Origin: Candidatus Magasanikiibacteriota bacterium
GTDB lineage: Bacteria; Patescibacteriota; Patescibacteriia; Magasanikbacterales; UBA922
Direction of reading: 5' to 3'
NCBI GenBank assembly: GCA_052033375.1
Contig: JBPOJQ010000004.1
Location: forward strand, 1 to 61,269
DNA: 61,269 nt
The position numbers and the translations under genes were made by a program. This document shows positions 4,169-37,406 of this stretch, piece after piece. Numbering within the stretch: position 1 is the first letter of the stretch; each line of letters begins with the position of its first letter. The notes under the pieces were generated by a model, which saw only the letters and a list, made by a program, of their open reading frames with translations, searched no databases and had not been told where the DNA came from.

Positions 4169-5614
4169 CTATACTTCCCGAACTTCCAGCAAGTTCACAT
4201 GCCCAGCCTGACCCACCGGCTCCCCTGCAACAATAATCAAACAATCGCCATCTTCAACCATCTTTTTATCCTTCAAATTAAGTATCGAACGCTCAATCAA
4301 CTCCTCAATTGTCTTACACTCTTCCAAAATAAATGGTCCTACTCCCCACGAAAGATTTAACTGACGACGCACACGCTCGGAGCTTGTAGCGACTGCGATC
4401 GGCAGCTCTGGACGATATTTGGAAATAAGCCGTCCGGTATCACCAGACAATGACGCAGCTAAAATCAATTTTGCGCCCACCTCTTCAGCGACTAATTTTG
4501 ATAACCCACTAATAGTGGTGTCAACATTTTTTTGTTTTGTATGCGTCTCTACTACCACCGGCACATCATCGTAACTTGATTCTTCCGCAGATCTGATAAT
4601 TGATGCCATGGTCTCGACTGTTTCGACAGGATACTCTCCAGTCGCAGTCTCATTTGATAACATCACCGCATCAGTGTGATCAATAACCGCATTTGACACA
4701 TCCGAGACTTCTGCGCGGGTCGGCCGAGGATTGTGCTGCATTGAATCAAGCATCTGAGTGGCAACAATTACTGGCTTTGCTCCTGCGCGTGATAGATCGA
4801 TAATCCTTTTTTGAATCAAAGGCACTTCTTCTGCTGGAATTTCAATACCCAAATCTCCACGCGCCACCATAATACCATCAGCAACATCAATAATTTTTTC
4901 AATTTTTTTTACAGCCTCATGCTTTTCTATTTTTGCAATAATCCGTATCGGACTATTTTCTATATTTTTCATCGTGTGTTCAATCTCTTTGATAAAAAAC
5001 TTTACATCGAGGATATCTTGCGGATCCATTACAAATGACATCGCGACCAAATCTACCCCCTGTTCAATACCAAATTTCAAATCTGCCCTATCTTTTTCAG
5101 TCAACACTGTAAGATTTTTCAGACTAGTATCCGGCACATTGATACCTTTATGTGATGTCAATCGCCCTCCCACCACGACCGTAGCTATAATTTTTTTTTC
5201 CTCTACCCGTGCTACTACCGCTTCACATTTACCATCATCAAGCAGTATCCGCTCTCCTGGTTTTACATATTCATGCAATTCTTCGAAACCAATCGGAATT
5301 TCCACCGAAGTCTGTGGCGCATATGTAAGCACAATTTCAGTACCTTTTTTTATTTCTATTCCTGCTTCAGGTAATTCACCCAATCGCAGTTTTGGTCCTT
5401 GTAAATCCTGAAGGATTGCCACCGGCTCTCCCGTACGTTTTTCTACTTCACGAATATTCTTGATAAGAAGCGCGTGATTTTCATGCGTACCATGGGAAAA
5501 ATTCAATCGTGCCACATTCATACCCGCATGTACCATACGTTCAAGCACGTCAACACTTTCACACGCTGGACCAATTGTTGCGACTATTTTTGTTTGCTTT
5601 ATTTTTTTTGACAT
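4169..5614 (-). CDS. pyk: Pyruvate kinase
   Basis: TKIVATIGP, ARLNFSHG, DLQGPKLR, IIAKIE, MVARGDLG, ATQMLDSM..NPRPTRAE motifs. Start reassigned to MSKK at 5614. Confidence 0.97.
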   Translation of the reverse strand: MSKKIKQTKIVATIGPACESVDVLERMVHAGMNVARLNFSHGTHENHALLIKNIREVEKRTGEPVAILQDLQGPKLRLGELPEAGIEIKKGTEIVLTYAPQTSVEIPIGFEELHEYVKPGERILLDDGKCEAVVARVEEKKIIATVVVGGRLTSHKGINVPDTSLKNLTVLTEKDRADLKFGIEQGVDLVAMSFVMDPQDILDVKFFIKEIEHTMKNIENSPIRIIAKIEKHEAVKKIEKIIDVADGIMVARGDLGIEIPAEEVPLIQKRIIDLSRAGAKPVIVATQMLDSMQHNPRPTRAEVSDVSNAVIDHTDAVMLSNETATGEYPVETVETMASIIRSAEESSYDDVPVVVETHTKQKNVDTTISGLSKLVAEEVGAKLILAASLSGDTGRLISKYRPELPIAVATSSERVRRQLNLSWGVGPFILEECKTIEELIERSILNLKDKKMVEDGDCLIIVAGEPVGQAGHVNLLEVREV

Positions 5615-5747
5615 ATATACAAATAAGAATAGACCTAGTGTATCTTGAAATAAGAAAGGTGGCAATACAGTACTATTTACACTTAACGGACTGTATAGTA
5701 CACTCTTTGAGAAACGCCCTTTCTAGGGCACAAACACGAGGTGATGT

Positions 5748-5948
5748 GTGAGCCTTTTTACAAGACCGGACGGTACAACAGTGCGCCTTGAAATCAGGGG
5801 CGGCATCGGCCAGGTGTGGATCTACAACAAAGATGGTAAATGCATCAGGCGTCCAATCAGCGACATAGTCGCTCATGCACAACGCCAGGCAACCGACCAG
5901 GAGTCACCGACGGAGGGAGGCCCTGCCGAAAGAGCACCAGACGAGTGA
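5748..5948 (+). CDS. Small GC-rich ORFan (66 aa)
   Basis: GTG start after SD-like gaggtga; upstream tttaca-17-tacact (5676-5704); followed by hairpins. Confidence 0.6.
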   Translation: MSLFTRPDGTTVRLEIRGGIGQVWIYNKDGKCIRRPISDIVAHAQRQATDQESPTEGGPAERAPDE

Positions 5949-5960
5949 TTATTCTTCGCG

Positions 5961-6053
5961 GGGTATGCGGCGGCTGTTTTCAAACACCACCTGCGTACCC
6001 TTTATTACTCCAAAATATTTTGAGGTAGTAAAGGGAGGACACAGGTGGTGTTT
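5961..6053. terminator. Overlapping hairpins between convergent genes (bidirectional terminator-like)
   Basis: gggtatgcgg..ctgcgtaccc (5961-6000); aaacaccacctg (5982-5993) pairs with caggtggtgttt (6042-6053). Confidence 0.55.
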
Positions 6054-6060
6054 TGTATTA

Positions 6061-8736
6061 CTATTTTTTCCGGTTCATTATCGCTTTCAACATTTCGACA
6101 AACAACAAATTCAACAACCCAAATCCACACAACGCCATCCATTCGACAGCACCCAATGGAACTGTATGCAACAAACGCTGGAATATTGGCAGATAGGTCG
6201 CACAGAGTAACATGCCCCATCCGAATAGTACTGCAAGTGTCAAATAATGGTTATCAAACCAGCGCATGTGTAAAAGTGATTTTCTCAGATTTCTAATTGG
6301 GTAGATATAAAACAATGCATCCACTGCAAACGCCAGGAACATGATTGTTCGAACACGCGCAATATCATCAGTTGTCCGCTCAAAATAAAAAAACATACCG
6401 CCGAGCAAAATATTTGCAAAAATTGTTTTTGCAATAATTATAAACCTCATCTCACGATCAATAATTGGCGCATTCCGTTTGCGCGGAGGTTCTTCCATAT
6501 TCTGTTTGTCTCCACGATCAAATGCAAGTGCAATGACAGGAAATGAATCCTGAATTAAATTAACCCACAAAATTTGTACAGGTAACACGGGCAGGGGCAT
6601 ACCTGCAATAATACTGGCGCTAATTAACAATACCTCAGAAAAACTACTTGAGAGGAGATACAACACGACTTTTTTTATATTTTGATAGATTCCACGACCC
6701 TCCTCAACCGAAGCTACAATAGTAGTAAAAGAATTATTCAATAAAATCACATCCGCAATTTCTTTTGCCACATCAGTACCAGATCCTACCGCAACCCCGA
6801 TATCTGCTCCTTTGAGTGCAGGTGCATCATTCACCCCGTCCCCAGTCATAGCAACCACCTGCCCTCGAGCCTGTAGTGCAGCAATGACTCTCATCTTGTG
6901 CTTCGGCTCGACACGCGCAAATACTGACGTCTTTTTGAGTCTTTCATCAAGTTCTCGATCAGAAAGTCGATCGAGTTCCACCCCTTCACACACACTCTCA
7001 GTAGCCATTCCTATCCCCGCACTACGCGCAATTGCACGTGCAGTAATGGCATGATCCCCTGTCATCATAATTACCCTGATTCCTGCACGGAGTGCCGCAC
7101 GGACTGTTTCAGGAACATCCGCACGAAGCGGATCAGCAAGTACGATAAGTCCCACAAATATCATATCGCACAAATCATGTTCTCCTATCAACTTTTTACC
7201 CGCGTGAGTTTCTCTATATGCAACACCGATCACTCGCAACCCCTCTTCGGTGTACTCACGCTCTTTTTGTCTCACAAACGATTCTATTTTTTTATTCCAC
7301 ACATGCACTCCCCCTTCTGCACGATATGCACGTATACGGGGATATATTTTTTCAAGCGCGCCTTTCATAATTATGATTCGAGACGTGGTATCAGTCACCA
7401 GTACTGCCATATATTTCTGATCACTGCCAAAAGGTATATCCGACAGACGTTCATACACGTGGTCTAGTTCGGTCTTGTATAGACCAATATGTCCCCCATA
7501 TCTCAATAATGCTGAATCAGTAAGATTCCCAGAAATTCTCCATTCATTTTCTGGTTTTGTATAATTCTCAAGGACACCATCGTTGCATAATACCCCCAAT
7601 TCAATCAGGTATTTCGCATCATGCTCAAGTGAATTTTCATCTATTTTTTCTCCCACAAAATTCCGAGCATCAAATGCCGCACGCGCAGTCGACATATACA
7701 CCACAGACATATTCCCTTCGGTCAATGTTCCTGTCTTATCCGTACAAATTACTGAAACAGAACCGAGTGTTTCTGCTGCAAGTAATTTTCGAACAAGTGC
7801 ATTTCTTTTGAGTATATGTTTCATGCCAATCGCAAGAATTATTGTCATTGAGATGGCAAGTCCTTCTGGAATAGCTGCCACAGCTACAGCCACAGCAGTT
7901 TTGAACAATTCAATTCCTTTTTCAGTATGTTCTGATTGAGAAAATAAGCCAAGTAAGAGAATACTCGCGCACATACCCACCACCGTCACACCTAATATTT
8001 TCCCTAATTTTGAAATTTGTTTTTGCAATGGAGTTGTGTCTTCACCGATAGTTCCGACCATTTCTGCTATTTTTCCAATCTCTGTCGCACCCCCAATCGC
8101 AGTGACGAGAACTTTTGCTCGCCCCCTGGTCATGACTGTGCCACGATATACCATATTTATCCTATCAGCGACCGAGATATTTCTTTTCATCAAAGCATCG
8201 GTTGTCTTTTTCTGCGGCTCCACTTCACCGGTCAGTACAGATTCATTGACCTCGCACTCAGATACGTGAATTACACGCCCATCTGCTTGAATTTTGTCAC
8301 CAGCGCGAATAAGCATAATATCGCCCACCACTACCTCCTGGCTTGGTACACGGACAGAGGTGCCATTTCGAATTACTTCTGCACTATAGGTCACCATGTT
8401 TTTTAATTTCTTCAATGCTGCATTTGCTTGGTATTCCTGTACAAATCCCACCAACACATTCACAGCAACCGTAATACTAATTACGACCACATCAATGAAT
8501 TCAGATAATAAAAAACTGATTATCGATGCAACAATCAAAATCATAATCAACGGACTCGTAAATTGTTCACCTAAAATTCTCCATGCAGTGACATCCCGAC
8601 TCTTGGCAGGAATTTCATTCGGACCATATTGATTCAATTGATTCAGAGCCTCTGCAGACGAGATACCCCTTTCAGTACTCTTTAATATTTCAAGTGAATG
8701 TGGGATACTACGTATATGAAAATCTTCGTTTTTCAT
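6061..8736 (-). CDS. Cation-transporting P-type ATPase (P2, Ca2+-type)
   Basis: DKTGTLT phosphorylation motif, LTGE, AIPEGL, KGA, MTGDH, MTGDGVNDAPAL; about 10 TM segments. Confidence 0.95.
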   Translation of the reverse strand: MKNEDFHIRSIPHSLEILKSTERGISSAEALNQLNQYGPNEIPAKSRDVTAWRILGEQFTSPLIMILIVASIISFLLSEFIDVVVISITVAVNVLVGFVQEYQANAALKKLKNMVTYSAEVIRNGTSVRVPSQEVVVGDIMLIRAGDKIQADGRVIHVSECEVNESVLTGEVEPQKKTTDALMKRNISVADRINMVYRGTVMTRGRAKVLVTAIGGATEIGKIAEMVGTIGEDTTPLQKQISKLGKILGVTVVGMCASILLLGLFSQSEHTEKGIELFKTAVAVAVAAIPEGLAISMTIILAIGMKHILKRNALVRKLLAAETLGSVSVICTDKTGTLTEGNMSVVYMSTARAAFDARNFVGEKIDENSLEHDAKYLIELGVLCNDGVLENYTKPENEWRISGNLTDSALLRYGGHIGLYKTELDHVYERLSDIPFGSDQKYMAVLVTDTTSRIIIMKGALEKIYPRIRAYRAEGGVHVWNKKIESFVRQKEREYTEEGLRVIGVAYRETHAGKKLIGEHDLCDMIFVGLIVLADPLRADVPETVRAALRAGIRVIMMTGDHAITARAIARSAGIGMATESVCEGVELDRLSDRELDERLKKTSVFARVEPKHKMRVIAALQARGQVVAMTGDGVNDAPALKGADIGVAVGSGTDVAKEIADVILLNNSFTTIVASVEEGRGIYQNIKKVVLYLLSSSFSEVLLISASIIAGMPLPVLPVQILWVNLIQDSFPVIALAFDRGDKQNMEEPPRKRNAPIIDREMRFIIIAKTIFANILLGGMFFYFERTTDDIARVRTIMFLAFAVDALFYIYPIRNLRKSLLHMRWFDNHYLTLAVLFGWGMLLCATYLPIFQRLLHTVPLGAVEWMALCGFGLLNLLFVEMLKAIMNRKK

Positions 8737-8881
8737 GGAAAAAAGTTTACTTGACTTTTCTATTCATCTAGTATATCATATTCGCGTCTCTAGTAGTTCT
8801 TAGTTCATGACAAGAAAGCCAATAGTAAGAGAGTTTGTATTTCTTATGAACTTTCTTCCTATTTGCTATGAACTAATTTAT

Positions 8882-8957
8882 GACCCTGTAGCTCAGCTGG
8901 TAGAGCAGTGGCCTTTTAAGCCAATGGTCGTGGGTTCGATCCCCACCGGGGTCACCA
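8882..8957 (+). tRNA. tRNA-Lys(UUU), CCA encoded
   Basis: GACCCTG..CGGGGTC acceptor, TAGCTCAGCTGGTAGAGC D-arm, TGGC-CTTTTAA-GCCA anticodon arm, GTGGGTTCGATCCCCAC T-arm. Confidence 0.97.
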
Positions 8958-8960
8958 AAC

Positions 8961-8990
8961 ATAAAACTCTGAAATTACTCAGAGTTTTAT
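8961..8990 (+). terminator. Terminator after tRNA-Lys
   Basis: ataaaactctga-aattac-tcagagttttat. Confidence 0.7.
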
Positions 8991-9045
8991 TGTGTCTAAT
9001 TGATACTAGGTACACATATCGTCACGTGGTACGGCGCGACATCAC

Positions 9046-9120
9046 GACATAACCCATGTTCCCTCCCAACCTGTAGATACTCACACACAGTATAATATGC
9101 ACAGGTTGGGGGGTTATGTC
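9046..9120. terminator. Long imperfect inverted repeat 3' of the SnoaL-like gene
   Basis: gacataacc..cccaacctgt pairs with acaggttggg..ggttatgtc. Confidence 0.55.
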
Positions 9121-9139
9121 AGTATACCCCCCTTGAGAC

Positions 9140-9556
9140 TCAGCTGATGCGCGGGGTAATCACTCCACGAACCTGTGACTGCCGATCATCCACTTCTTCA
9201 ATCTTCGTACTCTGAATCAGACCGCCTTCGAAGGTGAACGTGATCATCCGGTGAGCCGGAGGACGTCCACCGCCCACCCCCTCGAAGTAGACGAGTATTG
9301 CAGTGTCTGATTCGCACGGGATGTACTGATCCATTTCGTATCTGAGATCCTGGTCGTCTCCGAAGATCGATCGCCACCACCAGGACAGCGGAATCCTCCC
9401 ATAGATCGTGCCGTGCGTCTTCGGATGCCTGCGTTTGATGTCTGGAGAGAAGTGCGTGGGTTTCTCGACGTAGAGCTCGAGGAGACGATCCGTATCATGT
9501 AGATTGAAGCACCTCAGCCACTCGTGGACGAGCATGTATCTTGTATCGCGAACCAT
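9140..9556 (-). CDS. SnoaL/NTF2-like fold protein (138 aa), GC-rich
   Basis: W..CFN.HD.DRLLELY....HFSP....HP.THG.I.G...L..WW...F pattern typical of SnoaL-like proteins; SD-like gagaggg before ATG 9556. Confidence 0.7.
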   Translation of the reverse strand: MVRDTRYMLVHEWLRCFNLHDTDRLLELYVEKPTHFSPDIKRRHPKTHGTIYGRIPLSWWWRSIFGDDQDLRYEMDQYIPCESDTAILVYFEGVGGGRPPAHRMITFTFEGGLIQSTKIEEVDDRQSQVRGVITPRIS

Positions 9557-9623
9557 TGTTTTGAACCCTCTCTTTTTCGATGTAGCTAATTCTGCGTCAC
9601 ATGTCGCAGAATCAACGTGACAT

Positions 9624-9652
9624 ATTTTACGTGTAAAAAAAAATTTTGTAAA
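9624..9652 (-). promoter_or_regulatory. sigma70-like promoter of the SnoaL-like gene
   Basis: TTTACA-17 nt-TAAAAT on the minus strand. Confidence 0.6.
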
Positions 9653-9693
9653 CAAAAACTCCATACCACTATTATGGTATGGAGTAAATTGTC

Positions 9694-9765
9694 TCCGACG
9701 CTGTGGGCGATCGACATGTCAGAGACATGGTTCGCTCGCAGCGTCGGAATCTACCCCCGGGGTAG
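9694..9765. other. Two hairpins 3' of ORFan 9777-10109
   Basis: tccgacgctgtgggcga..gacatgtc-aga-gacatg..tcgctcgcagcgtcgga (55 nt) and ctaccc-ccg-gggtag. Confidence 0.6.
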
Positions 9766-9776
9766 GATGGGCTGGA

Positions 9777-10109
9777 TCATCCCTGTAGGTAGCGAGAAAT
9801 CTGCACTTCCAGCTCACCCCATCCAGGACAGATATACCCGCCACCGTGTCCGCCCACCTTGACACTCACACGGGTAGGCCCGTGCAAATGCTCAGGTCTC
9901 CTCATATCGGTGGGCATTCTGACCTCCCACCCTTCGATGTACACACCCCAGAAGAGACTATGCGCCTCTCGAACTCTCTTCACCTTGTCGGCCCAGATCT
10001 CGACCTCGGTACCATCTTTCAGCCGGATTCTGACAGCGCTATTGGGCGCTGTACACCGGAGATGTTTGTGGCCTTCGAAATAGGCATATCCATCTGAAGG
10101 AAACTTCAT
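9777..10109 (-). CDS. GC-rich ORFan (110 aa)
   Basis: ATG 10109 after a gagggggg SD-like run; TTGACA at 10197-10202 with CATTAT 17 nt downstream. Confidence 0.6.
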   Translation of the reverse strand: MKFPSDGYAYFEGHKHLRCTAPNSAVRIRLKDGTEVEIWADKVKRVREAHSLFWGVYIEGWEVRMPTDMRRPEHLHGPTRVSVKVGGHGGGYICPGWGELEVQISRYLQG

Positions 10110-10263
10110 ACCCCCCTCTTGTTCAAAGCGAACACCCATGTCGTATGGGTAACCGATCCGCTCAAAACAATATATAATGGCATTTTTTTCTTTATTTGTC
10201 AAGTATCTCGCATAACCAGTGCTACTTATTGAACAGCCAGCATATCCCTACCTATACTCTCTA

Positions 10264-13200
10264 TCACCAAGAGAATAGATTTTGTGGGAACCAATTTTTA
10301 TTCGGAAAAAATACTGGATATAGATCAAAAAAATTCTCCCTACTCATGCGATTATGGGTAACGACTGAACCCTGATTTGATTCCACGACATAATCCATTT
10401 TTTTGAAATTCACATTTTCTATATACCCCACTGATTGAGTATTCAGGACTAATCCATAATCCAAAAAATTACTCAATTTATTATAGCTCGTATTCCACCC
10501 CATTTCTGTATCCCGTACGTCCACACTTCCATTCCTTACTACCATAATCCCCCCTGGTCGCCGTGCATCAATCAACTGAGAATGTGAAATTGAAACCGTC
10601 GCCCCATCAATCCATATCATGTAGGGACGAGACGAAGAAAATGGATAGCCCGAAATGCTTTGAAAATATCCTCCTCCACGAATCTTCACATGTGACAGAT
10701 CTCCCGAACTTCCTGGTAAAAACAAAATATGAGAAAAAGTAGATGAAGACGATGCGCCGCCCGCAATTTCACTTACATTACCATTCTCACCCCCACTTAG
10801 AGTCCCTTGTATTTTTATTTCTCTTGCATATACATTACCCCCATCAAGTATCAGATGTGCTCCAGATGTCACAAATACCGTGGAAAATTCAAATCTATGA
10901 TGTGGTGTAAGTGTATAAGAACTTGTAACAATGAGTGTCGGACTATATGCATATGAAGGAGAGTTTTCCAAAAACTGAATGTCTTCCCATGTGCTCGGCA
11001 TTTTTTCCTCAAAATAAACTACCTTATCTAATACATCGAAATCATTTATTTTGACTGATGTTGCTTGTACTTCTGTTTTTCCACCACTATGCAACGCACG
11101 TTTCCCATGATGAAATTGTATATTTTTTAAATACACTGTCCCACCATTTGAATACACCAATGTGTCTGGTCCGGCCCCAGAACCCAATTCAAATCCATTC
11201 CCAATGTCAACATCCTGCAATACCACATCTCCACCCAAATTGGTTATTACTTGCGACCGACTACATCCCTGACAGAATGCGCTTGTACCAAATCTATTCC
11301 CACCATATTTTAATACGCCATGTTCAATAGTTAATGTTCCACCCTCTCCTACCTCTATATTTTGCCAATCTCCCGGCTGCGCCACACCCGACGTAAATAT
11401 ATTTGAAAATAATGTACTGGTCACCACTATTTCTTGGTCATACCTGGAAGTAAGTATAATCGGATCATGTTCATTTCCTTTCAGTATCAATTCACCTTGT
11501 ACATTTATTCTTGACTCTGGACTCACGCCTACAAATACAACCCCAGCCCCCACATGTACAGACTCATTTTCAGCTATGGTGATACTAGAAAATAAATGTG
11601 GATTTTCCTCTTGCAAAAATACCACATTCCCCTCACTATTTCTCGGATAAAAACCTATTGTTTCATCTGAAATAAATGCGTATCCATTATTTGCCATTCC
11701 TGGACTACCTGTAATTTGTCCACAATTTCCTGAGTGCACCCCGTATCGTACTGAATCACTCGTATTCCATGTACTTGTCCCAACACCACGCTCAAGTGTA
11801 TGTGGAAATTGTCCCGAATCCCCTGCTAACCATCCATTCGCTTGATCTATCTCATCTACTATTTCTCCATCTTGATTTTTTAATATCAGTCTCGCACCAC
11901 CATCTGGAATATGTATATATTGTGGCAACTCCATATCTGGAGTGACAAATGTAGAAAATATATCTGTATGTGAAATTAGATAATAGCTATTTCCCCCAAT
12001 TGATCCAGCCAGTGTCAGTGTACTCGTAGCTTCGAATTCGTGTATATCGAGTGTCCAATTTTCAAGTGAGTATGCTGTACTTGAAGCATTATATATTTCA
12101 ATCCACTCACGATCAGCGCATATCCCACTTGACCCAGACCACGCAACTTCATTGAACATAATTTCCTGACGTATGTCTGGTACATTCTCAATTTCTACAC
12201 CCCCGCCCCCCTCTACCACCTCGCCTATCGGGGAATGTTCATCTTCTTTTATGGGGGGATTCTCTACAGCATCTTCTATTACAGTTTGTGTACTTTCATT
12301 CGGAGAAGATCTACTACCACGACCCCCACCAAAAATTCGAGGTACTCGCGTAATCACATCCACCACTGTATCAACAACAGTTTCTGCAATTTCTTTTATC
12401 CCACGCACCAATCCCCCAATCACTGATACTTTTTCTGTATTCACAGCCTCATCTGTATGTTCTGGTGAAACAGAAAGCATAATTTCTACCACCTCATCCC
12501 CAATCTGTTTCCACGTACCCACCTCGACCACCATACATGGGATCACATACTCCCCCTCATCCAACCCGCTAATGGTAAAAGTGAACGTCCCTGATTCACC
12601 CGCCTCAACAACTGTCTGATCAAGTAATGCCGGACGTAAATCTGTAACCCAAGATGGATGACGAAATACCGCAGACACTTTACGCCCACCCACAATATTT
12701 AATGAAACCGTGTTCTTTTTCCACGCAGTCTTACCACTATTTTTTGCTCTCACAGTGACTGTCACCTCTGTATGGGGAGTAGATGTCACATTGAACTTTT
12801 TTTCATGAAATGACACCCCCAACTCAGACACCGTATCTTTTTCCTGAGATACTCCATACGCCACCTCTGCAGGGTGTTCTGTGGACACAAATATATTTTT
12901 TATACCATTCCATATAGTAGACGCGTGTGTATGATTCGTATTTTTTTCCACACTTTCTACCATCATCGGTTGTGGCGGGTCATTCAACCATAGATGTTTC
13001 TCCCCCATTCCACGATATGATGTATTCGGTGGATAGAATTGTTTCGTCTGATATAAATCATAACTATCCACCCGCCCGGTCGAGTACGCACCTTTCGTCA
13101 CCTCGAAATGTAGGTGCACATTATCAGTACCCGAGGCACCGCACGTACCAATATAGTCGCCTGTTTTTACTTTGGTCCACTCTGTGTAATTAGTATTATT

Positions 13201-20248: not shown

Positions 20249-20760
20249 TACGTTCGAACTTACGAACTAGTGCCAAAAATACGAAATAATATGCGGGAGG
20301 GACATATTTATTACGAAGAAATGATTTGTTATATCCTGAATTAAGTTTTCGTATTAATGGTATTCTGTATGAAGTCGCTCGTGAATTAGGTGGAGGTCAT
20401 CAGGAAAAATATTATCAAAAAGCGGTGGCTATAGGATTGCAAAATCAACAAATAAAATTTCAAGAATAATTTTACGCTCCTCTCGCATTTCAAGGTGAAC
20501 AGGTGGAAAAATATTTTCTTGATTTTTTAGTAGAAGATAGCATTGTGATTGAACTCAAACGAGAATTATTCATACCTCGAAAAATTATTGAATAGACGTT
20601 TCGATACCTCCAAGCCTTGGATCTCCAACTCGGCATTATTGCCTGCTTTACTAATCAAGGTGCTATCATAAAGAGAATTATTAATCAGCGATCAGTAAAA
20701 TAAAACTACTTCTAAAATTAATTTTCATACTTTCGTATTTAGTTCGTGAGTTCGAACGTA
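20249..20760. mobile_element. Inverted-repeat-bounded GxxExxY cassette inserted between lemA and htpX
   Basis: Left end tacgttcgaacttacgaacta..aaatacgaaa (20249-20286) is the inverse of right end tttcgtatttagttcgtgagttcgaacgta (20731-20760). Confidence 0.7.
20291..20703 (+). pseudogene. GxxExxY (PD-(D/E)XK-like) protein pseudogene
   Basis: LRRNDLLYPELSFRINGILYEVARELGGGHQEKYYQKA..YFLDFLVEDSIVIELK..YLQALDLQLGII; in-frame TAA at 20467 and TAG at 20593; ATG 20291 is out of frame. Confidence 0.85.
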
Positions 20761-32623: not shown

Positions 32624-33964
32624 ATGGTCGTGAAAACAAAAATAATCTTCACCTGTTCCAAGTGCGATGCACAATACCAGAAGTGGATTGGAAGATGTCT
32701 CGAATGTGGTTCATGGGGCACCGTCACGGAAACAGCTGAACGAATCCCAGAAAATAATACGACGGTTTCCACTTCTCAGCCCGCATCAATTCACACACTC
32801 TCAAGTGTTGATTCAACTACCACTAAACGGACACAAACTACGATTTCGGAACTTGATCGTGTGCTCGGCGGCGGAATTGTCCCTGGTAGTTTTATGCTCC
32901 TTGGCGGAGAGCCTGGTATTGGCAAATCCACACTAGCGCTCCAGCTCGCAGCTACAATCCCCTCTTCTCTCTATATCTCTGCAGAAGAATCGGTAAGTCA
33001 GGTAAAAATGCGGGCTGACCGATTGAATATTACCTCGACCACACTTTCCCTCGCGAATGAAACCGCGGTCGAAAAAATTATTTCAACTATACAAACTCAC
33101 AAACCTACGCTTGCGATTATTGATTCTATCCAGACTATTTCAAGCGAACAGGTGCAAGGTGAAGCTGGATCAGTGTCTCAGGTACGCGCGTGCGCCACAT
33201 TACTTCTTGAGGTAGCAAAACAATCCGGAATTCCGATTGTGATTATTGGACACGTGACGAAAGAAGGTAGTGTCGCAGGACCAAAAACACTTGAACATCT
33301 GGTCGATACAGTACTTTATCTTGAAGGAGATCAGTATCACACGTATCGAATTTTACGAGCAGTAAAAAATAGATTTGGCGCGACTGATGAAGTAGGTATT
33401 TTTGAAATGGAAGGAGTAGGTCTTATCTCGGTTGCAAATCCTTCGGCGTCCTTGCTTCGTGAGCGCGGAGAAGATATGCCTGGGAATGTGGTGACATGTA
33501 TCATGGAGGGTACTCGCCCACTCTTGGTCGAAGTACAAGCACTCGTTCATAAAACGACGTTTGGCTATCCGGTGCGCAAAGCAAGTGGATTTGATTTGAA
33601 CCGTCTACACCTACTCACTGCAGTACTTGAGAAACGTGCAGGGCTTACGCTTGCACAGTATGACATTCACCTGAATATTGTGGGTGGAATAAAAATTCAA
33701 GAACCTGCAGCTGACCTCGCAGTGTGCCTTGCAATTGCAAGCTCATACAAAGATAAGTCACTTGGTCGCGACACGATTGTGTTTGGTGAAGTAGGATTGG
33801 GCGGAGAAGTGAGATCCGTACGACACAATGAAAAACGAATAAAAGAATCAATTGATCTCGGTATGAAGCGCATCATTGTTCCTGCAGGGAAAAAAATTAC
33901 TGAACAGCCTGGTGTGAATATGATTGAAGTAAAGAATATTGAAGAGCTTATTAAGAAGACGTGA
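32624..33964 (+). CDS. radA: DNA repair protein RadA/Sms
   Basis: CSKC..KWIGRCLECGSWGT zinc finger, GGEPGIGKST, KNRFG, GEVGLGGEVR. Confidence 0.97.
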   Translation: MVVKTKIIFTCSKCDAQYQKWIGRCLECGSWGTVTETAERIPENNTTVSTSQPASIHTLSSVDSTTTKRTQTTISELDRVLGGGIVPGSFMLLGGEPGIGKSTLALQLAATIPSSLYISAEESVSQVKMRADRLNITSTTLSLANETAVEKIISTIQTHKPTLAIIDSIQTISSEQVQGEAGSVSQVRACATLLLEVAKQSGIPIVIIGHVTKEGSVAGPKTLEHLVDTVLYLEGDQYHTYRILRAVKNRFGATDEVGIFEMEGVGLISVANPSASLLRERGEDMPGNVVTCIMEGTRPLLVEVQALVHKTTFGYPVRKASGFDLNRLHLLTAVLEKRAGLTLAQYDIHLNIVGGIKIQEPAADLAVCLAIASSYKDKSLGRDTIVFGEVGLGGEVRSVRHNEKRIKESIDLGMKRIIVPAGKKITEQPGVNMIEVKNIEELIKKT

Positions 33965-33968
33965 CTAA

Positions 33969-34498
33969 ACGCGTCCCTCCCCTTTTAGGGGAGGGACGCG
34001 TGAGGTCTGCCGAAGCTTCGACTTTACTCTATACTAAAATTTAACAAGGAGGGATTATGCCGTATGTTTATACAAACAAACGTTCTTTAATTAATAGAAG
34101 AAAACTGTTACGTAGAAGACAGACCAAAGCAGAACAAATTCTATGGAAAGAATTACGTGGTAGAAAATCTGGAGTCGTATTTAGAAGACAATATGGCATC
34201 GGATCATATATTACTGATTTTTATTGTCATGAATTTAGATTAGTGATCGAGCTTGATGGACCAATTCATGACGAACAAAAAGAATATGACCGACGACGAG
34301 AAAATTTTCTAAAAAAGCAAGGATTCACAATACTACGATTTAAAAATGATGAAGTGTTATTTGAAAGAGAAAGTGTAATAGAGAAAATAAAAAGTGCTTG
34401 TAATATTTCTCCTCAGTAAACTACGCAAATATTATTATACTCACTTATAATAATATCCTTCGAACGACCTCACCCTTCCCTCTCCTGAGAGGAGAGGG
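33969..34498. mobile_element. DUF559 gene flanked by inverted REP-like hairpins
   Basis: 33975-34007 versus reverse complement of 34466-34498: 27/33 identical, with a compensatory C-G/T-A stem pair. Confidence 0.7.
34057..34419 (+). CDS. DUF559 family (Vsr-like) endonuclease
   Basis: LRRRQTKAEQILWKELR..FRRQYGIGSYITDFYC..LVIELDGPIH..YDRRRENFL..GFTILRFKNDEV; SD aaggagg. Confidence 0.92.
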   Translation: MPYVYTNKRSLINRRKLLRRRQTKAEQILWKELRGRKSGVVFRRQYGIGSYITDFYCHEFRLVIELDGPIHDEQKEYDRRRENFLKKQGFTILRFKNDEVLFERESVIEKIKSACNISPQ

Positions 34499-34505
34499 TT
34501 TAATT

Positions 34506-34631
34506 CAATACAAACAAAAATCCACACTCGCCCTCCCGCGATGACTCCCATATATGAGATTCATTGCGTGATTCGAGTGTGGATTTTGTATTCGAGACGC
34601 GAGCGGTCGCCGAAGCGATCCGCCCGCTCTC
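34506..34631. other. Two hairpins 3' of ORFan 34638-35054
   Basis: aaaatccacactcg (34517-30) pairs with cgagtgtggatttt (34574-87), with an inner stem; the second hairpin 34594-34631 has a cUUCGg loop on the minus strand. Confidence 0.65.
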
Positions 34632-34637
34632 TTCCCA

Positions 34638-35054
34638 TCAGTGGAAGTGCATCGGACGCCGGCTGCTGGGCTGGATCACCGAGACCTTCGGCTCACCCTG
34701 CTCGAGCTCCTCCTGCCAGAGGAGGAGCTTCTCGTGCGAGATGCCGAGGTTCTCCATGAGGAACCTCGAGACCCGCGGGTGCGTACGGAAGCTCCGGTAG
34801 ATGGTGCGCGAGATGTCATCGACCTTGGACTGCCGACCCACCTTGAGACCTCCGATGTCGAAAGTACCCCTGAACGAATCGTACAGGCCCTTCGACGCCA
34901 CCTGTTCATGGCCGATCACCCTGACGAGGCTACTGCAGATCTCGGGCGAGAGATGCTGGCTCGAGCCGGGAGGTCCTCCGACGAGACGGACCGCAGGACC
35001 ATGGGTCCCGAGGAAGGTCCCCGTGATCGCACACGTTCGACTGACTGACTTCAT
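34638..35054 (-). CDS. GC-rich ORFan (138 aa)
   Basis: ATG 35054 after aagggg; consensus promoter upstream; 39/60 G+C at 34681-34740. Confidence 0.65.
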   Translation of the reverse strand: MKSVSRTCAITGTFLGTHGPAVRLVGGPPGSSQHLSPEICSSLVRVIGHEQVASKGLYDSFRGTFDIGGLKVGRQSKVDDISRTIYRSFRTHPRVSRFLMENLGISHEKLLLWQEELEQGEPKVSVIQPSSRRPMHFH

Positions 35055-35140
35055 TGGTATACCCCTTGATGTTGTGCTTTTATGTGACGGCGTGACGGCC
35101 GAATCCACCCCAAAGCACGGAAAGAGTAGACATAGGTGCG

Positions 35141-35169
35141 AGTATAAACAAAAAATCCCAATCTGTCAA
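35141..35169 (-). promoter_or_regulatory. Near-consensus sigma70 promoter
   Basis: TTGACA-17 nt-TATACT. Confidence 0.75.
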
Positions 35170-35190
35170 TGCAAACTGGGGAAAAACATG

Positions 35191-35291
35191 AAATCCAAAA
35201 CTAAAAACTCAAATATCAAAACTTCAGCTTAAATCTCGAATTTTGACTTTTTAGTTGGAGCTTTGAGTTTTGAACTTTAAATTTTGAGTTT
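35191..35291. repeat. Inverted array of degenerate heptamers directly after the recG stop
   Basis: A-rich arm aaatccaaaactaaaaactcaaatatcaaaa and T-rich arm ttttgactttttagttggagctttgagttttgaactttaaattttgagttt. Confidence 0.65.
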
Positions 35292-37406
35292 CTACTCCAT
35301 ATGCACCCGAGCTTCCCACTCTTGTACCCGCTCTTTGAGCTCTGGAAACTTCTCAAAATCCATACCTCGAGCTGATTCCCTCGCAGCCCTGATAATATCC
35401 TGATCACGCATGGTCGCGAGCCGGAGTTCTTCCATTCCACTCTGCGCCGTACCATATACTTCTCCCGGGCCTCTAGTTTCAAGATCATATTCTGCAAGCA
35501 CAAATCCATCAAGTGTTTTCGCAAAGTACTCTAATCGACCTTTTGATACTACATTCTCAACCTCGGTAAACAAAATACAATACGACTGATACTCCGCTCG
35601 CCCTACTCTCCCACGGAATTGGTGCAGCTGAGCTAACCCAAATCTCTCAGCTCCCTCAATCATCATAATTGATGCATTGGGAATATTTACTCCAACTTCA
35701 ATTACTGAGGTTGAGACTAATATGTCAGTTTCTCCTGCAGCAAATTTTTTCATGATTCCTTCTTTTTCTTTTGATTTCATTTTTCCATGCAAATACCCAA
35801 CTCGGAGATCTGGAAATATTTTCGTTGACAACTTTTCGTATTCAGACAATACAGTTTTCTTTTCTGATACCAGACTTACATTTTCGCCTTCTTTTGTTTT
35901 CTGTTCTATCAACGGACACACGACAAATACTTGTCGTCCTTTTTCTACTTGCTCTCTAATAAATCCATAGGCCTTTTCTCTCTTATTCGGTTCAACGAGT
36001 CTCGTAATAATATCTTTTCTCCCCGCTGGTTTTGTCTTGATATACGATACATCGAGATCACCATACAAGGTCAGTGCGTACGAGCGTGGAATTGGTGTTG
36101 CAGTCATGGATAAAAAATGCGGATACATTCCTTCCATACCAGACTTATCACGAATTGTTTTTCTTTGTTCCACCCCAAATCGATGTTGCTCGTCGATCAC
36201 CACCAGCCCTAATTGGTGAAACTGTGTATCCTCAGTCAATAATGCGTGAGTACCGATAACTAAATCAATTAATCCCTCATTAATCTGTTTTTTTACTTCT
36301 TGTTTCTCTAATTTTCTCGATTTACTTTCGGCTTCATGCACTTTCGACTTTCGACTTTCGACTTGAGAACCTGTGAGAAGTCCAATACTTATCTTATCAC
36401 CAAATAGTTTTATTAGAGTCTCATAGTGCTGCGTCGCCAAAATTTCTGTCGGCGCCATAATGACTGATTGATATCCATTCAAAAAACTCAAATACGCAGA
36501 CAATCCAGCAACAATTGTTTTTCCAGACCCCACGTCTCCTTGCAATAGACGATTCATCGGTGAACCCTGCCCAATATCTTGGAAAATTTCCCATGCTGAT
36601 TTCTTCTGATCTACCGTTAATTCAAATGGTAGTGATTGTACAAACTCACGAATTTCTTTTTCCTTGAATCCAATATGTGGTGCGTGTTGTCTTGCACTCG
36701 ACTGTCGAATCAATTCTGCTCGAAGTTGCAATATGAACAATTCACCAAACTTAAGACGGCGCTCAGCGCACACTCTTTCTTCATGATTTTCTGGAAAATG
36801 AATTTTTTGTATTGCTTCAGATAACGTTATTAGTTTATTTTCTACAAGAATACTGTGCGGAATCCATTCTGTAATTTGCTCTGCAAGCGGAAGTACTTGC
36901 TCTACAAGAAACCTCATTTGTTTTTGTGTAACTCCTGATGTAAGCGGATACATAGGTACAATACGCGCGGTGTGTGTCGCCTGTTTGTCTTCTCGTACAC
37001 GTTCATACGCAGGACTAGTCATATGTGTCCCAAATACATCTTCTTTTATGGCACCCGACAGATACACCTCGTCCCCCACTTTCAATATTTTTGCAATAAA
37101 CGGCTGCCCAAACCAAATCACCCGGATCACGTCAGTCTCGTCCCGAACTACCGCTTCAGTAATCATTGTGCGTTTGCGAGGACTTCGTTTATTTGCGATT
37201 AATTCAATCGTGCCTTTAATCGTCAGATCTACCCCTGGCATAACATTCGCAATCGGTACGACTGATCGATAATCTTCGTATCGAAAAGGAAAATGAAATA
37301 ATATATCTTGTGCTCTAATTATCCCAAGAACATTCAATTTCTTTTCAAGATTTTTTCCTACACGATGGAGTTCGGATACTGGAGTTGTGAGGCGAAGCGC
37401 GGACAT
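35292..37406 (-). CDS. recG: ATP-dependent DNA helicase RecG
   Basis: DILFHFPFRYED, LQGDVGSGKT, IDEQHRFG, MTATPIPR, LAQLHQFRGRVGR. Confidence 0.97.
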   Translation of the reverse strand: MSALRLTTPVSELHRVGKNLEKKLNVLGIIRAQDILFHFPFRYEDYRSVVPIANVMPGVDLTIKGTIELIANKRSPRKRTMITEAVVRDETDVIRVIWFGQPFIAKILKVGDEVYLSGAIKEDVFGTHMTSPAYERVREDKQATHTARIVPMYPLTSGVTQKQMRFLVEQVLPLAEQITEWIPHSILVENKLITLSEAIQKIHFPENHEERVCAERRLKFGELFILQLRAELIRQSSARQHAPHIGFKEKEIREFVQSLPFELTVDQKKSAWEIFQDIGQGSPMNRLLQGDVGSGKTIVAGLSAYLSFLNGYQSVIMAPTEILATQHYETLIKLFGDKISIGLLTGSQVESRKSKVHEAESKSRKLEKQEVKKQINEGLIDLVIGTHALLTEDTQFHQLGLVVIDEQHRFGVEQRKTIRDKSGMEGMYPHFLSMTATPIPRSYALTLYGDLDVSYIKTKPAGRKDIITRLVEPNKREKAYGFIREQVEKGRQVFVVCPLIEQKTKEGENVSLVSEKKTVLSEYEKLSTKIFPDLRVGYLHGKMKSKEKEGIMKKFAAGETDILVSTSVIEVGVNIPNASIMMIEGAERFGLAQLHQFRGRVGRAEYQSYCILFTEVENVVSKGRLEYFAKTLDGFVLAEYDLETRGPGEVYGTAQSGMEELRLATMRDQDIIRAARESARGMDFEKFPELKERVQEWEARVHME
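36341..36366. repeat. Heptamer microsatellite (CTTTCGA)3 inside recG
   Basis: ctttcga ctttcga ctttcga cttga, encoding QVESRKSKV. Confidence 0.85.

Follow-up and report, generated by a model that had tools for sequence, protein, structure and literature searches.

Among described repeats, the closest relatives of the element considered here are those known as BoxC, PIT (potential intrastrand triplex) or TM_ECO. They have the same C-rich arm, loop of 3-6 nt, G-rich arm, short second loop and G-rich block mirroring the purine arm, and are found as singles and inverted pairs in Enterobacteria and Cyanobacteria at variable loci (Bergler 1992; Hoyne 2000; Holder 2015, PMC4666352). The published pattern is CCCTCNCCC-N3-6-GGGNGAGGG-N3-GGGNGAGGG, and MG1655 contains 23 TM_ECO copies, five as inverted pairs; a stable triplex was shown in vitro for the single-stranded repeat and observed neither for duplex DNA nor in vivo (Holder 2015, PMC4666352). 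These repeats mark unstable loci, their flanking genes belong to no functional class, and neither a mechanism of spread nor an associated gene was reported for them in a catalogue that covers hundreds of genomes (Holder 2015, PMC4666352). Two further systems are comparable in organization. In those formed by repetitive extragenic palindromes (REPs, REPINs) and REP-associated tyrosine transposases (RAYTs), a single-copy nuclease-type gene is flanked by inverted short palindromic repeats with a conserved tag beside the hairpin, and copies without the gene, as singlets or inverted doublets, are scattered over the genome (Nunvar 2010; Bertels and Rainey 2011, PMC3116915; Ton-Hoang 2012). In addition, the Vsr-like (EDxHD) nucleases, with I-Bth0305I and the free-standing genes of 'fractured genes' as examples, have an established role as homing endonucleases (Dassa 2009, PMC2677866; Taylor 2011, PMC3239194). 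Here we analyzed the contig JBPOJQ010000004.1 of a Candidatus Magasanikiibacteriota bacterium (61,269 nt, GC content 42%) from a wastewater community, the whole of which contig is referred to as the window; its closest protein relatives are annotated as Candidatus Magasanikbacteria. At about positions 33969-34498, a DUF559 nuclease gene has its own kind of repeat on either side, in inverted orientation, and sequence comparison supports the view that gene and repeats behave as a mobile unit. We give a probability of roughly 55% to the reading that this segment is a selfish nuclease-plus-repeat cassette, analogous to REP/RAYT systems and homing endonucleases.

The cassette follows the host gene radA (DNA repair protein RadA/Sms; 32624-33964, plus strand), which was identified by its open reading frame (ORF), its Pfam domains and its synteny kept in relatives. 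The left unit (33969-34007, plus strand), recognized from its sequence, its fold and its match to the right unit, is a hairpin with a third-strand tail that begins 4 nt after the radA stop codon (TGA, 33962-33964). Its hairpin core, CCCTCCCCT-TTT-AGGGGAGGG (33975-33995), is lengthened in this genome by ACGCGT arms into a 15-bp palindrome (33969-34001) with a fold energy of -39.9 kcal/mol (z = -6.7). A spacer ACGC and the gene-facing tail GTGAGGTC (34000-34007) come after the hairpin, and the palindrome continues as GTGAGGTC-TGC-CGAAGCTTCG. The following leader (34011-34056, plus strand, defined by sequence) is internal to the cassette and contains the sub-terminal CGAAGCTTCG (34011-34020), an A/T-rich stretch with TATACT, and the Shine-Dalgarno sequence AAGGAGG (34046-34052); for a candidate promoter, the signal scan gave only weak matches in it. 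The intact DUF559 gene (34057-34419, plus strand, 120 aa, assigned by its ORF and Pfam) has a GC content of about 32%, versus 42% for the window. On the plus strand, its stop codon is followed by CTTCGAAC-GACCTCACCC and then by the hairpin CCCTCTCCT-GAG-AGGAGAGGG (34478-34498). This hairpin is part of the inverted right unit (34458-34498, minus strand), which was identified by its sequence, its match to the left unit and a pattern scan, and which reads on the minus strand as the hairpin CCCTCTCCT-CTC-AGGAGAGGG (34478-34498), a spacer AA, the gene-facing tail GGGTGAGGTC and then GTTCGAAG. In the 61 kb, the hairpin pattern occurs only at these two flanking places, with 0.04 occurrences expected from shuffled sequences. 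The downstream host gene is recG (35292-37406, minus strand; ORF and Pfam).

This layout had been described in outline by an initial reading of the DNA without database searches (hereafter the sequence-only reading), and its observations on the sequence proved accurate. When the right unit (34466-34498) is reverse-complemented, it is identical to the left unit (33975-34007) at 27/33 positions; the differences at positions 6 and 16 form a compensatory C-G versus T-A pair, two more lie in the loop, and the tail GTGAGGTC-NNN-CGAAG is common to both units and faces the gene. The distance of 4 nt from the radA stop and the presence of an intact DUF559 gene with its own Shine-Dalgarno sequence were also correct. 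The same reading had regarded the hairpins as REP-like, and here it was mistaken, as they carry no GTAG/CGTC tag and have a different architecture. In both, arms of 9 bp enclose a loop of 3 nt, the 5' arm being rich in pyrimidines and the 3' arm in purines. Triplex-motif hairpins were defined by arms of 6-15 nt and a loop of 1-6 nt, and the third strand by a further block, set off by a short loop, whose sequence is the mirror of the purine arm in G.G, A.A or T.A triads. In the right unit, such a block, the tail GGGTGAGGT, comes after a 2-nt spacer and mirrors the purine arm AGGAGAGGG with T opposite A in 9/9 triads; the left unit forms 7/9 triads. The parts of either unit are, in order, the pyrimidine arm, loop, purine arm, short spacer and a third strand rich in G and T that mirrors the purine arm. 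Judged by this arrangement, the units belong to the already described BoxC/PIT/TM_ECO family of intrastrand triplex motifs, from whose published members they differ in being shorter and more A/T-tolerant, in their GTGAGGTC/GGGTGAGGT tails and in their occurrence in a genome of the candidate phyla radiation (CPR). Within the 61 kb they are two flanking copies and not a dispersed multi-copy repeat. Rfam searches at both gathering and permissive thresholds assigned neither the hairpins nor the GC-rich neighbouring unit to a credible RNA family and gave no intron match.

The encoded protein is an intact Vsr-like PD-(D/E)XK nuclease related to a homing endonuclease, with putative activity. It matches Pfam PF04480 with E 6.6e-36 over profile positions 6-108 of 109, and DUF559 and MTES_1575 are its only Pfam matches, none of them a transposase domain. 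An alignment of 37 homologues defined the family-invariant residues, all of which are present (E26, W30, Q45, D54, F55, E65, D67, G68, H71, D78 and R94), including the intact D...E-x-D-G-x-x-H core formed by D54, E65, D67, G68 and H71. Sequence search against PDB identified the DUF559 structure of N. gonorrhoeae (3HRL, E 6e-33), and profile search the catalytic domain of I-Bth0305I (3R3P, E 7.8e-5). An AlphaFold (AF2) model of the protein (mean predicted local confidence, pLDDT, 85.9) was matched by Foldseek to 3HRL with a template modeling (TM) score of 0.85, and to I-Bth0305I with E 8e-5 and TM 0.74-0.76. The match to Vsr was weaker (E about 0.05). Vsr, DUF559 and I-Bth0305I have been placed in one clade of the superfamily (Steczkiewicz 2012, PMC3424549). 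A true Vsr very-short-patch repair endonuclease was considered and rejected, since the protein has no Vsr profile match in Pfam and no dcm methyltransferase is found among its neighbours radA, the GC-rich unit and recG; the annotation pipeline of the Joint Genome Institute (JGI) labels close homologues as Vsr. A defence system was also considered, for which PADLOC gave only weak partial matches, to the nuclease domains of DpdF and of mREase_II (a methyl-directed restriction enzyme). The family is very large, with 57,382 clusters at 50% identity for the DUF559 profile in a representative library of 1.84 billion proteins, and it includes E. coli YcjD and the solved Neisseria structure but has no known function. 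Among the best 150 library matches, about 25 exceed 400 residues and have DUF559 in their interior.

By analogy, the system would work like REP/RAYT and homing endonuclease genes, but it is a member of neither: its enzyme class and repeat tag differ from those of REP/RAYT and it has no intron or intein. The enzyme belongs to the Vsr-like PD-(D/E)XK nucleases instead of the HUH Y1 transposases, a G-rich triplex strand (GTGAGG-type) takes the place of GTAG/CGTC as the tag, and the module also occurs in frame in protein genes. With the Vsr-like homing endonucleases (PMC2677866; PMC3239194) it shares a related catalytic fold, the existence of occupied and empty alleles at fixed sites (radA-recG and two sites in LeuRS, described below) and the tolerated insertion into essential genes. 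In contrast to them, DUF559 has no large N-terminal DNA-binding domain, it is translated through, and it has its own flanking repeats, related gene-less copies of which exist. Thus, the proposal of the sequence-only reading, a REP-like system without a transposase, stands in part: the behaviour of a mobile unit is backed by comparison, while the protein is not a RAYT and the repeats are not REPs.

Comparison with close relatives shows the cassette to be an insertion relative to some of them (comparison contigs are given by L numbers). The sequence-only reading had asked for an empty site, and one was found: relatives carry the gene with both hairpins, or the whole cassette is absent. In four of them (L001-L004), a DUF559 gene whose protein is 80-85% identical to that of the window is present at the same place after radA with both units, whose stems covary (CCCTCCCC/GGGGAGGG, CCTCTCC/GGAGAGG and CCTTCCC/GGGAAGG). 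Homology between L004 and the window ends directly after the right hairpin, which places a border of the cassette there. The left unit is conserved with covariation in L001, L002, L004, L129 and L130, and the leader is kept in the first three of these but not in the second DUF559 allele of L129 and L130.

Further radA-recG regions, obtained via the RadA proteins of relatives, revealed four states of the site. In the empty state (L131, L132 and L133; RadA 80% identical), the terminator hairpin of the neighbouring transcription unit lies directly 3' of radA, and neither a C/G hairpin nor DUF559 is present at the site. In the second state (L127, RadA 84%), a solo hairpin, CCCTCCCCT-AAA-AGGAGAGG, is found without tails and without a gene. 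It is a hybrid that combines the left arm of the left unit with the loop and right arm of the right unit, and looks like the product expected from a deletion between the two hairpins, or like an unoccupied target. In the third state, L129 and L130 (RadA 95% and 92%) have near-identical units (…CCCTCCCCTTTTAGGGGAGGACAGGTGAGGT… and …AACCTCACCTAACCTCTCCTAAGAGGAGAGG…) around a second DUF559 allele that is only 54% identical to that of the window, and the sequence inside the tails is unrelated. In the fourth state (L128, GCA_964565405.1; RadA 83%), a GIY-YIG nuclease gene with its own inverted repeats occupies the place downstream of radA, so that the site collects different small nuclease cassettes. 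This GIY-YIG gene (L128, 2690-3100) is apparently broken, and its repeats read GTCATTGCGAG…GAAGCAATC and GATTGCTTC…CTCGCAATGAC. Sliding identity between the window and L130 is 75-95% in radA and 32-72% across the cassette, whereas between the window and L002 it is 70-92% in the cassette and 28-42% in the next module. Taken together, the site states and the mosaic identity indicate an inserted cassette that is gained, lost and exchanged and whose borders are the units; by the same comparison, the gene between the units changes while the units themselves remain. An excision joint across the cassette was not seen in contigs of four sequencing runs (depth 2-6x, fragmentary), in which a co-occurring strain with an L001-type left unit and a different GC-rich cargo was detected.

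The pairing of DUF559 with these hairpins extends far beyond the close relatives. A profile built from the 37 homologues identified 80 further loci in contigs from one genome per species, which span Patescibacteria, Bacteroidota, Chloroflexota, Cyanobacteria, Lentisphaerota, Spirochaetota and metagenome-assembled genomes labelled Gammaproteobacteria. Within 200 nt of each gene, hairpins were counted if their 5' arm was rich in pyrimidines and their stem had 7 bp or more. They were found upstream of 56 of the 91 DUF559 cores (62%), downstream of 54 (59%) and on both sides of 44 (48%); the corresponding values for other ORFs of at least 200 aa in the same loci were 16/315 (5%), 10/315 (3%) and 0/315, and 2.7% of random 230-nt windows of these loci contained a hairpin. 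A triplex-type third strand accompanied 78% of the DUF559-adjacent hairpins, 1% of control flanks and 46% of hairpins elsewhere in the loci. Moreover, the upstream flank resembles the reverse complement of its own downstream flank, with a median local alignment score of 32 for cognate versus 17 for non-cognate flanks (p = 4e-19; score of the window, 37). When neighbouring hairpins separated by 200-1200 nt were paired, DUF559 lay between the partners in 49 of 81 cases; the other pairs surround fragments of host genes, and DUF559 was the only gene family to recur in this position. Comparison shows a unit-gene-unit module across phyla, placed in varied intergenic sites and in frame within conserved genes.

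The hairpins elsewhere in the loci are solo units and gene-less doublets (e.g. L045 7555/7630, L092 7914/7953 and several in L096 and L078), and by comparison such gene-less copies accompany the module in many genomes. The solo copies expected by the sequence-only reading were therefore found in many DUF559-bearing genomes but not in the 61-kb window itself. That reading had listed three outcomes as contrary to its idea (hairpins not enriched around DUF559 homologues, no solo copies, and relatives carrying the gene without hairpins), and on all three the results were favourable to it. A metagenome scan for CTTCGNNNGACCTCAC-N3-6-CCTCNCC, in a collection outside which the lineage of the window lies, gave 39 matches, almost all of them chance ones in GC-rich DNA and none adjoining DUF559.

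Two of these loci deserve a description of their own. In L088 (Magasanikbacteria RIFCSPLOWO2_12_FULL_43_12; 5800-11920), three DUF559 paralogues, 34-40% identical, are located within 12 kb, each with a different unit variant (tail extensions GGATGAGGTCTC vs GGGGGTGTGTTCGC); these variants hint at cognate nuclease-repeat specificity. In L060 (Chloroflexota CFX11; 4500-11600), there are eight matches to the DUF559 profile in about 7 kb, some overlapping and some weak, and the region looks like a cluster or graveyard of copies.

These data bear on an alternative explanation, namely that the hairpins are terminators or mRNA-stabilizing stem-loops around a horizontally acquired gene and resemble each other through shared constraints. 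The right hairpin is indeed followed by TTTAATT on its 3' side on the plus strand and was flagged as terminator-like by the terminator scan, the left hairpin follows the radA stop codon, and the solo hairpin of L127 lies between radA and the convergent GC-rich unit. However, the inverted similarity runs past the stem into the GTGAGGTC-NNN-CGAAG tail, this tail obeys the mirror rules of a triplex, and a U-tract is missing from the left hairpin. Such hairpins are absent around the other genes of these loci, while the units also flank DUF559 within coding regions, where they are translated as PSPxGEG-type linkers. Moreover, these motifs were without promoter or terminator activity in earlier work (Holder 2015, PMC4666352, citing Maher). 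The explanation was already disfavoured and we regard it as highly improbable.

In about 30 loci, the DUF559 domain is located within a long uninterrupted ORF, and Pfam named 26 of the host proteins. They include leucyl-tRNA synthetase (LeuRS; 11 loci at two different sites), HsdR (3 loci), MetH (2 loci, two different sites), type IIG enzymes (2 loci) and, at one locus each, a type ISP enzyme, Lhr helicase, acetyl-CoA synthetase (Acs), HsdM, HsdS, an N6/N4 methyltransferase and a polysaccharide-synthesis protein; an amino-acid kinase carries the domain as an N-terminal fusion (2 scanned, 3 more look alike). Restriction-modification proteins (HsdR, HsdM, HsdS, type IIG, type ISP and N6/N4 methyltransferase) make up 10 of the 26 hosts, which looks far above their share of genes. 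No intein (Hint) domain was detected by Pfam in the 26 hosts, and the insert is read through. In the LeuRS alignment, the insert consists of linker, DUF559 and linker, and the linkers (…LTPNPSPPERG… and …SPSFGGGWGE…) are translated units, as are the odd terminal extensions of called homologues (SPLLGGVGGG, PLPRGEGD). LeuRS site 1 is empty in L077; L097 has two units without DUF559 at site 1 and a full module at site 2, where L123 has only a single unit, and the LeuRS of L109 (Patescibacteria) contains the module at site 1, as do nine Bacteroidota. DUF559 domains group by host lineage and not by host gene: the domain at LeuRS site 2 of L097 is nearest to that at LeuRS site 1 of L106, MetH domains are nearest to LeuRS domains, and cyanobacterial copies in HsdR, in type IIG enzymes and in free-standing genes intermix. 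This lineage-wise clustering argues for movement between sites within lineages. Rickettsia palindromic elements, which Ogata is said to have described in 2000, are reportedly short repeats tolerated in frame at surface-permissive sites of housekeeping proteins; they are without an associated nuclease gene, whereas the repeat pair here often encloses a complete nuclease domain. Solo triplex-motif units were also observed in frame in HsdR and LeuRS coding sequences (L078 9150-10720, L087 6375-7143, L123 7151-7670 and L120 4798-5801), where they are translated as PLPKGEG- or LSFGEGRGE-type peptides, several per gene.

The BoxC/PIT/TM_ECO family was first noticed beside E. coli envM/fabI, i.e. as the copy next to ycjD, the DUF559 gene of this species. 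In K-12, ycjD lies between sapF and fabI, with a degenerate unit over its stop codon (…SPSP*) and a canonical BoxC (CCCCTCGCCCCTCTGGGGAGAGGGTTAGGGTGAGGGG) about 170 nt downstream; a rough estimate from 23 copies in 4.6 Mb puts at about 0.002 the chance that a given gene has a TM_ECO copy within 200 nt. TM_ECO is absent from Salmonella. Between ycjD and BoxC (L124, E. coli K-12, 4250-4400), the 3' end of ycjD is partly repeated in tandem (…ETVLENIRQGLNRP…) together with a degenerate unit, which suggests past recombination at the units. Of 5426 complete genomes, 3346 contain the segment with ycjD and BoxC. In the others, such as O157:H7, a 7.5-kb efflux island replaces it with a break about 40 nt past BoxC; clean excision at this empty site was considered and rejected, given the replacement and the lack of BoxC at the junctions. 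Counted in evenly spaced records, BoxC-like places have a median of 20 (14-32, n = 37) in chromosomes with ycjD versus 7 (2-22, n = 21) in those without it, for example 4 in CFT073 and 3 in NC101 (Mann-Whitney p = 9e-9, uncorrected for phylogeny). This result fits the prediction of a DUF559-repeat pairing.

It would also fit a model in which DUF559 is a host-beneficial, structure-specific nuclease that processes the hairpins or triplexes of the repeats (e.g. to relieve replication blocks) and is kept adjacent to them by co-inheritance or cis-preference, like some RAYTs, for which domestication as single-copy genes has been argued. Besides the correlation of BoxC number with ycjD presence, such a caretaker role would agree with the single intact copy in the 61-kb window and in E. 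coli, with catalytic residues conserved over very wide phylogenetic distances, and with the triplex of TM_ECO being stable in vitro and marking unstable loci (Holder 2015). Yet the gene is dispensable and patchy among very close relatives, a 54%-identical allele replaces it at the same site, and in-frame insertions in essential genes as well as several divergent paralogues within 12 kb are selfish rather than housekeeping behaviour. We consider this model quite unlikely.

Several observations weigh against a selfish cassette. The case linking DUF559 to the units is comparative throughout. With no solo unit and a single DUF559 in the 61 kb, current activity in this genome is not indicated, and the cassette here looks like a single resident copy. 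Neither a target-site duplication nor a fixed cut site could be defined, and a consistent direct repeat outside the units was absent from the window, L001, L002 and L129; in this, and in having no transposase domain, the cassette differs from insertion sequences and miniature inverted-repeat transposable elements (MITEs). The 80 comparison loci are best matches to this subfamily and not a random DUF559 sample, and 25 of the 91 DUF559 loci have no such hairpin on either side. Orientation is not fixed: tails face the gene in 33 and point outward in 21 free-standing cases, and the third strands of in-frame cases are outward in 46 and gene-facing in 11. The E. coli correlation is confounded by phylogroup, and some strains without ycjD keep about 20 BoxC copies, indicating that the repeats persist without the gene. 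In addition, no mobility genes and no transposase or integrase remnants were reported near TM_ECO sites (Holder 2015, PMC4666352).

Some of these points would be expected if the units were moved by host recombination, by replication slippage at non-B DNA or by another transposase, and DUF559 were trapped cargo kept for a benefit of restriction, repair or addiction type. Apart from the variable orientation and the BoxC copies left in strains without ycjD, this explanation is favoured by loci in which solo units and doublets far outnumber gene-carrying ones, by the weak PADLOC matches to restriction-type models, and by other nuclease genes between different inverted repeats, i.e. the GIY-YIG cassette of L128 at the same site and a decayed PDDEXK_3 gene with 38-nt inverted repeats elsewhere in the window. 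The latter suggest that small nuclease genes between repeats are a general habit. On the other hand, no gene family other than DUF559 recurs between unit pairs (49 of 81), and the flanks are cognate to each gene copy, as in L088, which would not be required of a random passenger. In-frame fusion into essential enzymes brings no obvious host benefit, and no transposase or recombinase was found among the neighbours in the window or in the survey of Holder 2015. DUF559 as a mere passenger is, in our estimation, unlikely.

For the selfish cassette preferred here, the following course may be proposed. DUF559 would recognize the units, either as a duplex palindrome or as a folded hairpin/triplex of single-stranded DNA, and would nick or cut at or beside them. 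Repair or recombination of the break, templated by the gene-carrying copy, could then bring the gene and its units into other unit-bearing or permissive sites, giving a homing-like spread. Deletion between two units would leave solo units, which may relate to the full module as REPINs do to RAYTs or MITEs to insertion sequences. More broadly, and as a tentative proposal that we rate at somewhat short of even odds, DUF559 proteins may be the missing partner nucleases of the BoxC/PIT/intrastrand-triplex repeats. Together they would form a widespread selfish class, from CPR to Bacteroidota, Cyanobacteria, Chloroflexota and E. coli, that spreads by nuclease-triggered recombination at structured repeats and, when in frame in LeuRS or MetH, uses its ends as Pro/Gly-rich linkers, similar to an intein but without splicing. 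The repeats studied here differ from their published description, which gives no flanking-gene pattern and no mobility gene, in being tied to DUF559 and in occurring in frame in genes. The repeat family and the protein family are each known, whereas the pairing, the cassette behaviour and the in-frame modules are new as far as searched; no paper linking DUF559 to these repeats, to cassette behaviour or to in-frame modules was found in a search outside which most subscription journals lay. If true, the pairing would give both families a testable function and predict that nucleases and their cognate repeats match in specificity, which could be exploited as a source of structure- or sequence-specific nucleases. 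In addition, it would represent a route for selfish nuclease genes that needs no transposase, intron or intein and includes in-frame domain insertion in aminoacyl-tRNA synthetases and restriction enzymes. For annotation, translated units explain many spurious N- and C-terminal extensions of DUF559 calls.

Outside the cassette, a separate transcription unit (34505-35180, minus strand) with a promoter, a leader, an ORF and a terminator hairpin precedes recG. Its promoter is near-consensus (TTGACA-17-TATACT, 35169-35141), its conserved leader contains the repeated GTGACGGC, and its long terminator hairpin (about 34511-34594) is also conserved. The unit forms a GC island of 60-67% versus 42% for the genome, with an orphan ORF of 138 aa (34638-35054) that has two homologues only and no match in Pfam, NCBIfam or PADLOC. 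In close relatives, promoter, leader and terminator are kept while the ORF comes from at least four unrelated GC-rich families. This unit is the right border of the insertion site, as radA directly precedes its terminator hairpin in the empty-site relatives.

A few other features of the window were recorded. An inverted match between the DUF559 gene and positions 47871-47909 was dismissed as chance, its partner lying inside topA. A second small nuclease cassette is located at 20249-20760 between LemA-like and HtpX-like genes; its decayed PDDEXK_3 gene (GxxExxY-type) gives E 1.2e-17 if translation is continued across an in-frame TAA at 20467, and it is bracketed by the 38-nt inverted repeats mentioned above (20249-20286 and 20723-20760), which are 79% complementary. 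Just past the recG stop, A/T-rich imperfect direct repeats of 14-20 nt (TTTTGA-type) are present at 35196-35291, and similar repeats are found at 16319 and 17199 (family D4).

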